Part shown: piece after piece, positions 1,859 through 43,869 of the stretch
Layout of the letters: every line of letters begins with the position of its first letter
Position numbering within the stretch: the first letter of the stretch is position 1
Source: a virus
Direction: 5' to 3' (one strand)
IMG/VR virus record: IMGVR_UViG_3300032298_000540
Span: 1 to 64,000 of that record
Length of the DNA stretch: 64,000 nucleotides
The notes under the pieces: generated by a model
The model's input: only the letters and a program-made list of their open reading frames with translations
Told to the model about the DNA's origin: nothing
Database searches by the model: none
Position numbers and translations under genes: made by a program

Positions 1859-1885
1859 AGTAATGATGCAATAGGTTTCTGATGT

Positions 1886-1958
1886 GGACTCATCAGGGCA
1901 GTAATTAACTGCCGACTAAGTTACAACATCGTTATAATGTTATAACTTAGTTTCGTCC
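1886..1958 (-). ncRNA. Hammerhead ribozyme, type II
   Basis: Minus strand GGAC-GAAA-[stem III CUAAGUUAUAACAU/AUGUUGUAACUUAG]-UC-[stem I GGCAGU/ACUGCC, loop UAAUU]-CUGAUGA-GUCC; complete core CUGAUGA/GAAA/GUC; predicted cut between 1914 and 1913. Confidence 0.93.
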
Positions 1959-3004: not shown

Positions 3005-3028
3005 AAAAAAACCGGGTTTAAGCCCGGT
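3005..3028 (-). terminator. Rho-independent terminator
   Basis: Minus strand ACCGGG-CTTAAA-CCCGGT followed by a T-tract, downstream of 3049-3276. Confidence 0.65.
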
Positions 3029-3048: not shown

Positions 3049-3276
3049 TCAGTCAACAATAGGATCTGTCGCCTGTTGTCTTTTATATTCTAACGCAAGA
3101 GCCTTAGATTTTCTAAATTGATCTTCTTCTGGTATCGCATAAGCAAGCCCTTTTTTCGCTTCTGTTACAAAATCACGTACTTCAAATGCATCAGCACCGG
3201 TACTAGCAATATTTAATGCTTTTTTTTGGATGCTTTGCAACCCTTTGATTCTTGCTAGCCTGGCTTCTGGGTTCAT
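3049..3276 (-). CDS. Hypothetical protein
   Basis: 75-aa ORF followed by terminator. Confidence 0.65.
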   Translation of the reverse strand: MNPEARLARIKGLQSIQKKALNIASTGADAFEVRDFVTEAKKGLAYAIPEEDQFRKSKALALEYKRQQATDPIVD

Positions 3277-3366: not shown

Positions 3367-4980
3367 ATGGCTCTTTCTCCAACTGATTTCTACGCATATA
3401 GTCGTGCTACTGGAACACCATTCCCAGAAGATCCAGAAGAAAGGGCACAGATGGCACCTGAGGTGCTTGAATTCAAGCGTAATCAGCTTAAAGCACCAGA
3501 ACAAGGTCCTAATTATGGCGCTATTGCAGGACTTACTGCTGCAGGATTAGGTCTTGCTGCTGGAGGACTAGGTTTATCTCGTTTATTTAGAAAAAGTGCT
3601 CCTCGAGCTACTGCTCAAAGTAATATAGATCTTGCTACAAGAGCATCTCAACCAGTTACAACAATTAGTAAAATAGATCTTCCTGTAGTACAACCGTCTA
3701 AAGTTGTAGTAGAACCTAAATCATTTACTAAAAATTATTTGGATGAAGTATTAGAAGAAGCAGATGCAAAAGTTGGTGCACTAACTGAATCAGAAAAGAC
3801 TATTGAATCCAAACCATTTAATTTAACGTATATTGAAACAACCGGAGCAAAAGCACCAGATCTTACATCAATACAACAATCTCAATTACCTGTGATTTCT
3901 GCACAGCAAAGAGCTGCTATTGAATCAGGAGAAGATCAAATAACAGGTCGAATAAAACATCGCTTACAACAAGATGAAGATTTAGATACAAGTCAAGTAG
4001 AAGTAATGGAAGGGATGGCACAGGAACAATATCGTATTGGCATGGAACAGAAAGATCCAATTGTTTCTTCACAAGAATTTGTAGATTTAGCAAAACAAGA
4101 AATGATTAATAGAAGGCAAGCAGTTCAAGCAAGTGGGTTACGTCCAGGTACAGAAAGATTTGAACGTGCTCTTGCACAATCTTTTGTAACTAAATCTATA
4201 CCAGGAGCAGAACCAGGAACTGTTAATTTTAGAAATTTGCAAGACTTAAATAAAATTGATATTTCATTACCTTCCACGATACGTAGAGCAGTTGATATTG
4301 TTGAAGAGACAGGTCCAGAAGAAGCTCTTGAACCAAAGAAATTACGCGCCGTATTGAACGTTGGTCCACTAGCAGAAATTACTACAACAGCAATGGGAGG
4401 TGCAATACGTGGTGCATCGCCGCTTTATCATGAAGCGTTACCTAAACAAAGTCAACGACAGATTTTTGGAACACCTGATGTTTTAGTGCGGGGAGCGCCT
4501 GATGAATTAACTTCTGATATACCAGGTAGACAGCGGTTATCTAGTGCGTTGTCTGCTGATATTCCTGCAGAAGAACTTTCTAAACAAGAAATTCAATATG
4601 GTTTTTTAAATGAAACTCCTATTGCAACACCTAAAGGAGGAAGCGCTGGTATAGGATTATATGGAATAGAGCCTAGATATGTTCCTGGTGCAATGAGTAA
4701 AGTTACAGGAGAGTATTCTGAAAAAGCAAGTCAAAGACCTAGTTATGTTCCTGGTTGGCTTTTAAGGCGAGAGGAAACTCCTTTTTCTAATGTTTCAAAT
4801 GAAGGGCTTCAACGAGCATTGGAAAAGTCAGGTTCAACGGGAGCACGTTCTATTACCAAAGAAATAGAACGACGCGAAAAAGGAAATAAAAGTTTAATAG
4901 TAAGTGAGGCATTACGTAGAGCTAAGATTGAAGGACGTGATCCACAAATGATTCTTAAACAATTAGGTATAGGTATTTAA
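3367..4980 (+). CDS. Hypothetical virion-associated protein
   Basis: 537 aa, first gene of rightward module, Gly/Ala hydrophobic segment near N-terminus. Confidence 0.75.
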   Translation: MALSPTDFYAYSRATGTPFPEDPEERAQMAPEVLEFKRNQLKAPEQGPNYGAIAGLTAAGLGLAAGGLGLSRLFRKSAPRATAQSNIDLATRASQPVTTISKIDLPVVQPSKVVVEPKSFTKNYLDEVLEEADAKVGALTESEKTIESKPFNLTYIETTGAKAPDLTSIQQSQLPVISAQQRAAIESGEDQITGRIKHRLQQDEDLDTSQVEVMEGMAQEQYRIGMEQKDPIVSSQEFVDLAKQEMINRRQAVQASGLRPGTERFERALAQSFVTKSIPGAEPGTVNFRNLQDLNKIDISLPSTIRRAVDIVEETGPEEALEPKKLRAVLNVGPLAEITTTAMGGAIRGASPLYHEALPKQSQRQIFGTPDVLVRGAPDELTSDIPGRQRLSSALSADIPAEELSKQEIQYGFLNETPIATPKGGSAGIGLYGIEPRYVPGAMSKVTGEYSEKASQRPSYVPGWLLRREETPFSNVSNEGLQRALEKSGSTGARSITKEIERREKGNKSLIVSEALRRAKIEGRDPQMILKQLGIGI

Positions 4981-4982
4981 TT

Positions 4983-5207
4983 ATGACAAAAGAAAAAAAA
5001 GAAAAATCCAAAAAGTGGATTCAAAAAGCTGAGATTAAAGAAGGAACCTTTACAGCAAAAGCTAAACGGAAAGGTATTACTTCTTCTCAACTGCAAGAGA
5101 ACGTGCTTGCGGCACCAGACAAGTATGACGAAAAAACTGTTAAGCAAGCCAACTTGCGTAAAACTTTGGTAAAGTTAAATAACCGTAAAAAGGAAAAGGC
5201 TAGCTGA
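4983..5207 (+). CDS. Small basic phage protein
   Basis: Lys-rich, KWIQKA.IKEG.FTAKAK...ANL.KTL motif. Confidence 0.75.
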   Translation: MTKEKKEKSKKWIQKAEIKEGTFTAKAKRKGITSSQLQENVLAAPDKYDEKTVKQANLRKTLVKLNNRKKEKAS

Positions 5208-5848
5208 TGTCAAAGGATGCCCGCCTTGATCTAGGTCGTTATATTACTAACCCTTTCAACAGGGGAAACTATGATCATAAAAAACTTTCTTTTGATGATT
5301 TGTTTCGTACAAAAGCAAGTAGTAACAGAGCGCCATGGACACCGTCTCGTTTTACAGAAGAAGATTTACTAAATCGTGTTAAAACAAAACAACTTACTTT
5401 AAACTCAGATCTTAACTTTATTTCTAATTCACCTTTCTTTGATACTAATGAAAAAGTTAATAGTGATTATGAATTATTTAAAGGTTTAGGACGATTCAAA
5501 CGCAGAGAAGATTATGATTTTCAAGAAGGACGCGCTCTTACTAAACAACGTCCACAAGATCAACCAGATTATCAACCCCTTTGGTTAGATGCATATAAAC
5601 TTAGTCCTACTTTAAATCCTGCTAAACGAGCTAAGAATCCAATGCCTACAATGTCTAATCCAGATCCAAGAGGTTTCTTGATGGATATAGCTGAACAACG
5701 CGCAGAAGATGAAGCAGAAGGAAAAATGAGTGTTGCTGATTTGTTACCATCAAAACAAACAAGTCCACAAATACGTAAAGAACAACAAGAAGGAAGCAAA
5801 ACTGCACAAGAAGAAAATAAACTCCCCTTGGAACCTAATCAGAAATAA
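5207..5848 (+). CDS. Hypothetical protein
   Basis: 213 aa, TGATG coupling to upstream gene. Confidence 0.75.
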   Translation: MSKDARLDLGRYITNPFNRGNYDHKKLSFDDLFRTKASSNRAPWTPSRFTEEDLLNRVKTKQLTLNSDLNFISNSPFFDTNEKVNSDYELFKGLGRFKRREDYDFQEGRALTKQRPQDQPDYQPLWLDAYKLSPTLNPAKRAKNPMPTMSNPDPRGFLMDIAEQRAEDEAEGKMSVADLLPSKQTSPQIRKEQQEGSKTAQEENKLPLEPNQK

Positions 5849-42838: not shown

Positions 42839-43015
42839 ATGACCCAACAAGATTACCCCAGGTTAGCAGTCGGCTACCAGGCACCAAAGATTGATTGCCC
42901 AAAGCACGGGATTCACAGCCACACAATTGTGAGCACTATTCCAAGTCACGAAGGCTATTGGTGCCAAATTTGCTGGCTGGAGTCACTTGGTGAACCTCTG
43001 CCTGTAGTTGAGTAA
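42839..43015 (+). CDS. Small putative Zn-binding protein (58 aa)
   Basis: CPKHG...WCQIC. Confidence 0.55.
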   Translation: MTQQDYPRLAVGYQAPKIDCPKHGIHSHTIVSTIPSHEGYWCQICWLESLGEPLPVVE

Positions 43016-43063
43016 TCATTCCCACTCGTCTATCCTATAGTCCTACAGCCACCCAAACTGCCC

Positions 43064-43243
43064 ATGACTAATACCTATATCGAGATCAGCACCGAAGACA
43101 ACAAGGAAGACGTGACCGGACTGGTCAAGCACGTCGCTGATCGAACCCCTGGCGTCACCGTTGAAACCAAAGAAGGCGGCGGCATCAAGATGACTGGTGA
43201 TGCCAAGATCAGAATCTCAGGCGGCGCCATCAAGTTTGGCTAA
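43064..43243 (+). CDS. Small hypothetical protein (59 aa)
   Basis: Clean ORF with GC-richer codon usage. Confidence 0.5.
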   Translation: MTNTYIEISTEDNKEDVTGLVKHVADRTPGVTVETKEGGGIKMTGDAKIRISGGAIKFG

Positions 43244-43424: not shown

Positions 43425-43760
43425 ATGTCTATTGACGACACTTCAGTTACAAGAACTCAACCCTCCTGGCGCCAACTAGCTGTTATTCCTGAGTCGGTAC
43501 TCAAGGCATCCGTACTTAAAGCTTGTGGTGTAGTACCACCTGCTGCTGGAGTAAGTCGTACATTTGACGGTGGTAGCTTTCGCGTATTCGCAAATGTCTC
43601 CCCTGGTACACACAATACCGAGGGTGTGTGGTTTACGTTGTACCAGGACACAGGCTCACAACTGTTTACTAACCCTAAACAATTATTAAAAGCAGTACGT
43701 ACATCACCAGGTACAGCTACAGGTGATGCCATAAGAACTTGGTTTACGTTTTTTACCTAA
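43425..43760 (+). CDS. Hypothetical protein
   Basis: 111-aa ORF. Confidence 0.55.
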   Translation: MSIDDTSVTRTQPSWRQLAVIPESVLKASVLKACGVVPPAAGVSRTFDGGSFRVFANVSPGTHNTEGVWFTLYQDTGSQLFTNPKQLLKAVRTSPGTATGDAIRTWFTFFT

Positions 43761-43869
43761 CCTACATCCTGACTAGACAACACTAGACTTAATTTTATTA
43801 TTACCGTATGATAAGCTTTAGATTTATAATCGGAAATTATCCGACTTTGTACTTAAAAAGGAACATCAA

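Follow-up and report, generated by a model that had tools for sequence, protein, structure and literature searches.

A predicted type II hammerhead ribozyme with a core-complementary 3' tail between two small genes of a phage operon

The DNA analysed here, referred to as the window, makes up the opening 64 kb of a 76,874-bp IMG/VR phage genome that has terminal repeats and carries no tRNA genes. From 3276 down to 60 all genes of the window lie on the minus strand, and within this leftward run two short cistrons stand on either side of a compact RNA motif. The upstream cistron, P0001 (1961–2161, minus strand), is predicted to encode a protein of 66 aa with an N-terminal hydrophobic helix and closes with a UAA stop at 1963–1961, whereas the downstream cistron, P0002 (1646–1858, minus strand), would encode 70 aa with a central hydrophobic helix. 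Neither product has a Pfam or PHROG match. An earlier note on this DNA, made by reading its letters, had described the two as small membrane-protein genes, and the single hydrophobic helix in each predicted protein agrees with this description. The motif occupies 1886–1958 on the same strand as its neighbours. Its position 3 nt past the upstream stop was also given correctly in that note, as the UAA is followed by CA and then by the GGAC with which the motif opens, leaving 2 nt between stop and motif; a further 27 nt separate the motif from the next start. The last part of this interval, an A/U-rich stretch at 1859–1878 (minus strand) that stays mostly unpaired in the fold of the predicted 3' cleavage product, serves as the leader of P0002 and has no Shine-Dalgarno sequence. 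No terminator was found between the two flanking genes. A strong one lies upstream at 3028–3011, after the gene at 3049–3276, and is formed by a hairpin rich in G+C, with runs of T on either strand, as in a bidirectional terminator.

The relatives of this phage are few. A megablast search of 8 kb against phages gave no match, and blastn against phages gave a single one, between a 79-nt tRNA-like element at 2170–2248 and Synechococcus phage S-EIVl from an arctic lake (88.6% identical). The 537-aa product of 3367–4980 likewise matches only the syntenic gene of S-EIVl, at 29% identity, and S-EIVl is the sole relative in the phage collection searched. Homologues of P0001 are present in the contigs L082 and L083 and, unannotated, in S-EIVl, although a peptide-pattern search of IMG/VR with P0001 was unsuccessful. 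P0002 is 96% identical in L082 and L083, always with the ribozyme directly upstream. Judged by these matches, the source is probably a lake phage distantly related to S-EIVl, and the relationship points, weakly, to a freshwater cyanobacterium as the host. The element that gave the blastn match belongs to a 77-nt repeat with two minus-strand copies, at 2173–2249 and 2476–2552, that share the hairpin GUCCGGUGGUGCAAACCCACCGGCA and the end GCGGAGAUGGGUACCGCACA; of these the first copy is 88.6% identical to S-EIVl 43716–43794, and the MFE z-scores of the two copies (−0.6 and −1.0) are unremarkable.

Read 5' to 3' on the minus strand, the motif has the order GGAC–GAAA–stem III–GUC–stem I–CUGAUGA–GUCC, i.e. 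the type II hammerhead topology, in which stem II is open and loops cap stems I and III. The 5' strand of stem II (GGAC, 1955–1958, with C11.1 at 1955) pairs in the MFE structure with the 3' strand GUCC (1886–1889, with G10.1 at 1889), and the closing pair G10.1–C11.1 is present as G1889–C1955. The conserved GAAA, corresponding to G12, A13, A14 and A15.1, is read directly at 1951–1954, as is the catalytic core CUGAUGA (C3 U4 G5 A6 U7 G8 A9) at 1890–1896. The stem III hairpin (1915–1951) begins with the pair A15.1 (1951)–U16.1 (1915) and joins 1951–1936 to 1930–1915 around a 5-nt loop (1935–1931), giving 16 bp with two G-U pairs. The stem I hairpin (1897–1913) joins 1913–1908 to 1902–1897 in 6 bp, closed by the loop UAAUU (1907–1903), and is invariant in the lineage. 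Between these helices lies the cleavage triplet G1916 U1915 C1914; H17, a position that may be any base but G, is a C. From the position of the GUC triplet after stem III, and from the chemistry of hammerheads, cleavage is predicted 3' of C17, between 1914 and 1913, which would leave a 55-nt leader to the AUG at 1858.

Direct reading and folding confirmed to the base the core, the GAAA and the GUC triplet, the 6-bp stem I, the 4-bp open stem II (GGAC/GUCC), and the coordinates of the cut and of the 55-nt leader, all as the earlier note had placed them on the minus strand. Two of its statements need amendment. The stem III that it gave as 14 bp with one G-U pair is the right helix, but the first and last pairs had been omitted from a full count of 16 bp with two G-U pairs; and the limits 1886–1958 are right for the ribozyme but overlook a 3' tail at 1885–1879, which is discussed below. 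In all, some 15 positions that define a hammerhead are present in the right order and with the right spacing. Folded alone (73–86 nt), the ribozyme adopts exactly the three-way junction, at −31.4 kcal/mol (z −7.06, 0/200 shuffles), and its sequence lacks a U-tract for termination.

To place this site against chance expectation, a descriptor that covers all three hammerhead topologies with loose stem requirements was run on the whole 76,874-bp genome and on shuffles of it. The site was the sole match in the genome, compared with 0.05 sites per shuffled genome, and the motif therefore stands far beyond chance; an even looser version of the descriptor brought up no additional site. The search with the Rfam type II model that had been suggested as a check turned out negative, in that RF02276 gave no match in the genome at E ≤ 10 and none at its gathering threshold of 37 bits. 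Rfam 15 at gathering thresholds likewise returned nothing over the whole 64-kb window. The sole weak Rfam signal, a Hammerhead_3 match at 1870–1921 (20.9 bits vs a cut-off of 48.5 bits), was rejected, as its register is wrong: it uses a downstream GAAAC and leaves stem III unpaired. Ten phage loci (L004, L050, L068, L021, L042, L007, L010, L059, L008 and L110) that contain more than 30 clear copies, scoring 40–73 bits with a purpose-built CM, are likewise left without a hammerhead call by Rfam 15 at gathering, and because of this we regard the failure of RF02276 as a blind spot of the model. A large subclass of phage hammerheads is thus missed by the curated Rfam model, and routine annotation counts too few of them. 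A custom CM (R1), built from 18 unrelated IMG/VR phage type II hammerheads of which none belongs to this lineage, scores the ribozyme at 53.1 bits (E 2.8e-12), with the next-best match in the 64 kb at E 1.8. Together with the core and the three helices, this score supports the identification as a canonical type II hammerhead that the motif had been given at first sight.

Pattern scans of IMG/VR and of JGI metagenomes yielded 13 contigs of the same lineage, with 9 distinct sequences. The ribozyme is perfectly conserved in these 13 contigs while the flanks vary, in the sense that no change is seen in the core, in stems I and II or in the 7 nt behind stem II and that substitutions are confined to stem III, where 7 of the 16 pairs vary, two of them by compensatory double changes, and 97% of cells remain paired. 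Covariation within the lineage is no better than in column shuffles, because the sequences are close relatives, and the evidential weight therefore rests on the family-level alignment. In that alignment of 130 copies, this one included, 98.5% of cells are paired and double changes occur in 18 of the 20 pairs. Within the family this copy has the lowest G+C (0.38 among the 130), and its stem III, at 16 bp against ~9–10 bp in most copies, is unusually long and A/U-rich.

We also looked for the tertiary contact between loop I and the 3' tail. The best helix available for such a pseudoknot is 2 bp here, where at least 4 pairs were required, and over 109 copies of the subclass the mean equals that of the shuffled control. 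An alternative pairing of loop I with the 5' tail (UUAA) was considered and set aside as unsupported: it consists of A-U pairs throughout, and the distance it has to span differs between the two upstream contexts described below. With no loop I–tail pseudoknot detectable, the ribozyme may be slow at cellular Mg2+.

These observations allow us to weigh the possibility that the site is a chance or decayed look-alike, namely two stabilising or terminating hairpins beside hammerhead-like words, with no catalysis. Such a site would be expected to lack an Rfam match at the curated threshold and a tertiary contact, as is found, and its active fold need not be the MFE structure in context, which it is not (see below). 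On the other hand, some 15 defining positions occur in order where only 0.05 sites per genome are expected at far looser criteria, the custom CM gives an E-value of 2.8e-12, conservation in 13 contigs is perfect against variable flanks, and a terminator would need the U-tract that is missing. We consider a look-alike exceedingly improbable. From its sequence, the motif is probably a genuine, functional type II hammerhead ribozyme for which cleavage is predicted, a judgement that we make jointly with the processing role proposed below.

The position of the ribozyme between genes is typical of its class. In 74 distinct IMG/VR copies, an upstream ORF (at least 40 aa) ends at a median of 6 nt before the ribozyme, with 46 of 68 lying within 10 nt, and the next start follows at a median of 29 nt downstream. 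Among 190 copies with GGAC/GUCC (loci L003–L203), ~80% have a stop triplet whose end falls −1 to +3 nt from the first G of stem II, where a rough calculation from triplet frequencies leads one to expect ~25%, and a third of these stop triplets are UAG sharing its G with GGAC. A Shine-Dalgarno sequence lies ~14–16 nt, and a start ~25 nt, after the GUCC of these 190 copies. The copy in the window, at 2 nt and 27 nt, fits the spacing of the class (medians of 6 and 25–29 nt) and has no Shine-Dalgarno sequence. Since the stop triplet abuts stem II, a terminating ribosome must occupy the 5' strand of the open stem.

The core itself contains an AUG (A6 U7 G8), which we considered as a start for P0002 and rejected, as it is in frame in L082 and L083 but out of frame in the window. 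In these two contigs (L082 2965–3213 and L083 2965–3213) one extra base puts the core AUG in the frame of P0002, and ORF finders call an 82-aa product that starts inside the ribozyme, which amounts to an annotation trap.

The seven bases that follow stem II, A-CAUCAG (1879..1885, minus strand), form the 3' tail mentioned above. The CAUCAG (1884–1879) is complementary to C3–G8 of the core, CUGAUG (1896–1891), and the two could form a 6-bp hairpin with a 6-nt loop. A spacer of 1 nt separates stem II from the tail, and this copy thereby falls within the subclass in which a tail 0–2 nt from stem II pairs with C3–N7 and, as a rule, with G8 too. As modelled, pairing of the tail would be incompatible with catalysis and must inactivate the core. 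When the tail is included in the fold, the MFE structure exchanges stem II for the masking hairpin (−34.2 vs −31.4 kcal/mol, a difference of 2.8 kcal/mol), and the probability of stem II in its sequence context is ~0.001 according to a nearest-neighbour model that ignores the tertiary energy of the hammerhead. Taken by itself this switch says little, because 50 of 74 other copies likewise lose their 4-bp stem II in the context MFE and because tertiary structure is left out of the model.

Comparison across phage hammerheads is more telling. A first test for enrichment of the tail was too permissive (control 18.5%), and stricter tests were used instead. Of the 74 copies of an unselected set, 8 have the exact tail AUCAG no more than 8 nt from stem II where 0.29 would be expected, and with G-U pairs allowed the AUCAG tail is present in 8 of 33 sequence clusters; the lengths of the core–tail helices are bimodally distributed. 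Two symmetrical scans, in which only UCAG was fixed and the next tail base was left free, covered 86 other phage hammerheads. Where the core is CUGAUGA, the free base is A in 54 copies, G in 4 and U in 1 (U7-A, U7-G and U7-U); where the core is CUGACGA, it is G in 26 copies and A in 1 (C7-G and C7-A). The association between N7 and the tail base has a Fisher probability of 1.4e-16, and mismatched N7–tail pairs number 2 among the 86 copies. Both matched states occur within each of three clusters, and one contig carries the C-G state together with a U-G intermediate. As N7 is the only freely variable position of the core, we are dealing with direct covariation between core and tail, and it follows from the G-U intermediates that the pairing takes place in the RNA of the sense strand. 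The finding that the tail base covaries with N7 across 86 copies leads us to conclude that the core–tail pairing, and with it the masking hairpin, is under selection. Literature searches turned up no published natural hammerhead tail that masks the core.

Other tails were noted in the course of this survey. A second common class, AG-N3-4-GACU(U), is complementary to (G8)A9–G10.1-U-C, i.e. to the other end of the core and stem II, with, in many cases, a hairpin after it that contains the Shine-Dalgarno sequence (e.g. L004:3438–3498, L050:1242–1302 and L074:1052–1118). On an unrelated phage contig, L008, a cluster of five tRNA genes (5066–5457) lies 2.3 kb from a self-masking hammerhead.

We propose that the ribozyme serves the leftward operon as an intercistronic processing module that would convert an early polycistronic message into hairpin-capped single-gene messages, and we hold this to be its probable role. 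In this scheme the polycistronic RNA would cut itself after C1914. The upstream product would close with the 16-bp hairpin, overhanging by 1 nt and bearing a 2',3'-cyclic phosphate. The downstream product, carrying P0002 and the later genes, would begin flush at the base of stem I, its first nucleotide being a paired G that bears a 5'-OH. Bacterial mRNA decay involves RNases E and J that depend on a 5'-monophosphate, and on this general ground exonucleases and 5'-end-dependent RNase E/J should attack both of the new ends poorly. With their ends so protected, the two cistrons would become independent in stability and translation. The halves of the cut RNA would be held by the 4-bp stem II only and should therefore separate at once. 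In the fold of the predicted 3' product, stem I and the masking hairpin lie side by side, and the 23 nt from 1878 to 1856 are unpaired in 78% of the ensemble. The tail might thus play a different part before and after the cut: in the cleaved product it would yield a stack of two hairpins, with an unstructured leader running from there to the AUG, and in the uncleaved RNA it would compete with the weak 4-bp stem II and so slow or gate the cut. It could be regarded either as the fold in which the product rests or as a brake that slows the cut.

A ribosome that terminates 2 nt upstream must sit over GGAC–GAAA and would so favour the masked state for as long as the upstream gene is translated. Carried to its end, this idea makes the ribozyme a gated switch and not a constitutive cutter, held off by masking and released by departure of the ribosome or by a change in temperature or Mg2+. 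It agrees with a masking hairpin that is selected and whose predicted stability exceeds that of the active fold by 2.8 kcal/mol, and with a stop triplet −1 to +3 nt from stem II in ~80% of the 190 copies and in both contexts of the lineage. However, the proximity of the stop may reflect tight packing of genes, 21 nt separate the tail from the AUG and, in relatives that bear a Shine-Dalgarno sequence, 6–12 nt separate it from that sequence, which places it outside the usual footprint of a ribosome, and no ligand or sensor domain is present. We consider such a switch unlikely, and equally so its consequence that processing would occur at set times or in step with translation of the upstream gene.

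The surroundings of the ribozyme differ among its relatives. In one group of contigs it follows the P0001 homologue, as in the window; in the other, an additional 66-aa gene stands between the P0001 homologue and the ribozyme. This extra gene (L083 2639–2897) has its own 58-nt leader and ends in UAA–CA–GGAC just as P0001 does. The joint lies at a TTAAC microhomology, with homology to the window resuming ~5 nt before GGAC, and the ribozyme and P0002 stay together despite the insertion of a gene upstream. S-EIVl (L084, KJ410740) presents a third arrangement. Its unannotated P0001 homologue (43024–43209, minus strand; 44% identity, E 1e-17) ends in a stop that is followed by a copy of a 28-nt pseudoknot module (~42990–43016) and by no hammerhead. 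A hammerhead search of S-EIVl gave two trivial matches inside coding regions and zero CM matches, from which we conclude that this phage is without the ribozyme. The window holds two further copies of the pseudoknot module on its minus strand (26–53 and 823–851), each just past a stop codon; the motif reads GUCCU .. AUGACAUUAAACU .., and its second helix differs between the two by compensatory changes (GGGUA/UACCC vs AAGCA/UGCUU). Like the hammerhead, the module occupies a slot a few bases past a stop codon; unlike it, the module has an unrelated fold and no catalytic motif. The presence of a hammerhead in the window, and of a pseudoknot in S-EIVl, thus indicates that related phages fill the same slot with different RNA modules.

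This exchange could also be taken to mean that the main selected role of conserved intercistronic RNA modules is genomic, as shared joints for the exchange of cassettes between phages, with self-cleavage secondary or lost. The unit of ribozyme and P0002 is indeed found behind two different upstream genes, the TTAAC joint supplies UAA–CA to either of them, another RNA module takes the same slot in S-EIVl, and the genes that flank prophage hammerheads vary (PMC3088659). A single genomic copy, however, has no internal recombination partner. The catalytic nucleotides are invariant in the lineage while stem III drifts with its pairing kept, which is the pattern of a working RNA, and the G-U intermediates between core and tail point to selection at the level of the sense-strand RNA. 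A mainly genomic role is very unlikely in our judgement, and we retain the intercistronic processing module as the preferred reading.

As a tentative extension of the processing module, the hammerhead might be a two-state ribozyme whose cutting is timed, for example by the terminating ribosome, and which is one of several interchangeable modules of RNA "punctuation"; we think this possible but would not expect it. If true, S-EIVl-like cyanophages would set the life spans of their early messages by placing a ribozyme, a nuclease-blocking pseudoknot or a tRNA-like element in the same slots. Since 2011 the function of phage and bacterial hammerheads has been an open question (PMC3088659, PMC6765202), and the sole hammerhead of a complete 77-kb genome, in a defined slot between two genes, offers a test case. 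As this slot is filled by a different RNA module in a related phage, and as the tail covaries with the core, function can be put to the test.

Type II hammerheads of bacteria and prophages were described by Perreault et al. in 2011 (PMC3088659; Rfam RF02276) and correspond to the "GSC" permutation of a later classification (PMC10085705). The ribozyme reported here shares with them an identical core, the G10.1–C11.1 and A15.1–U16.1 pairs and the GUC site, as well as the location between phage genes on the sense strand. The proposed role, to cut long phage transcripts down to mRNAs of single-gene length, is also the same: processing of polycistronic RNA was suggested for clustered prophage hammerheads (PMC3088659), a role that is still regarded as unproven (PMC6765202). 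The differences lie in copy number, helix length and tail. The copy found here is a single one and not part of a cluster, has a 16-bp stem III and goes undetected by RF02276. A pseudoknot between loop I and the 3' tail, a contact that gives high speed, occurs in the majority of type II copies, though not in all of them (PMC3088659), and forms part of their consensus; none is seen here, and the tail is instead predicted to pair with the core. There is nothing out of the ordinary about the ribozyme itself; what opens its function to testing is the core-masking tail and the exchange of modules with S-EIVl.

Blocking of a ribozyme by an adjoining strand has counterparts in other systems. The HDV antigenomic ribozyme is attenuated by an upstream poly(A)-site sequence (PMC2396440), and engineered cis-blocking strands exist for hammerheads (PMC3553993). 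In these cases, as in ours, a neighbouring strand pairs with the ribozyme and competes with the active fold; however, the HDV attenuator acts on a different ribozyme and the engineered blockers are man-made, whereas the tail described here occurs in nature on the 3' side and, with a length of 6 nt, is directed at the core of a hammerhead. In synthetic insulators of the RiboJ type, a hammerhead and a following hairpin are placed before the ribosome-binding site. RiboJ is an engineered form of a type III satellite-RNA hammerhead, and there is no pairing between its additional hairpin and the core. The two are alike in that the cut removes, or here would remove, the upstream context and that a hairpin follows the ribozyme near the translation start region, and they differ in that the hairpin of the phage ribozyme is predicted to form with the catalytic core itself.
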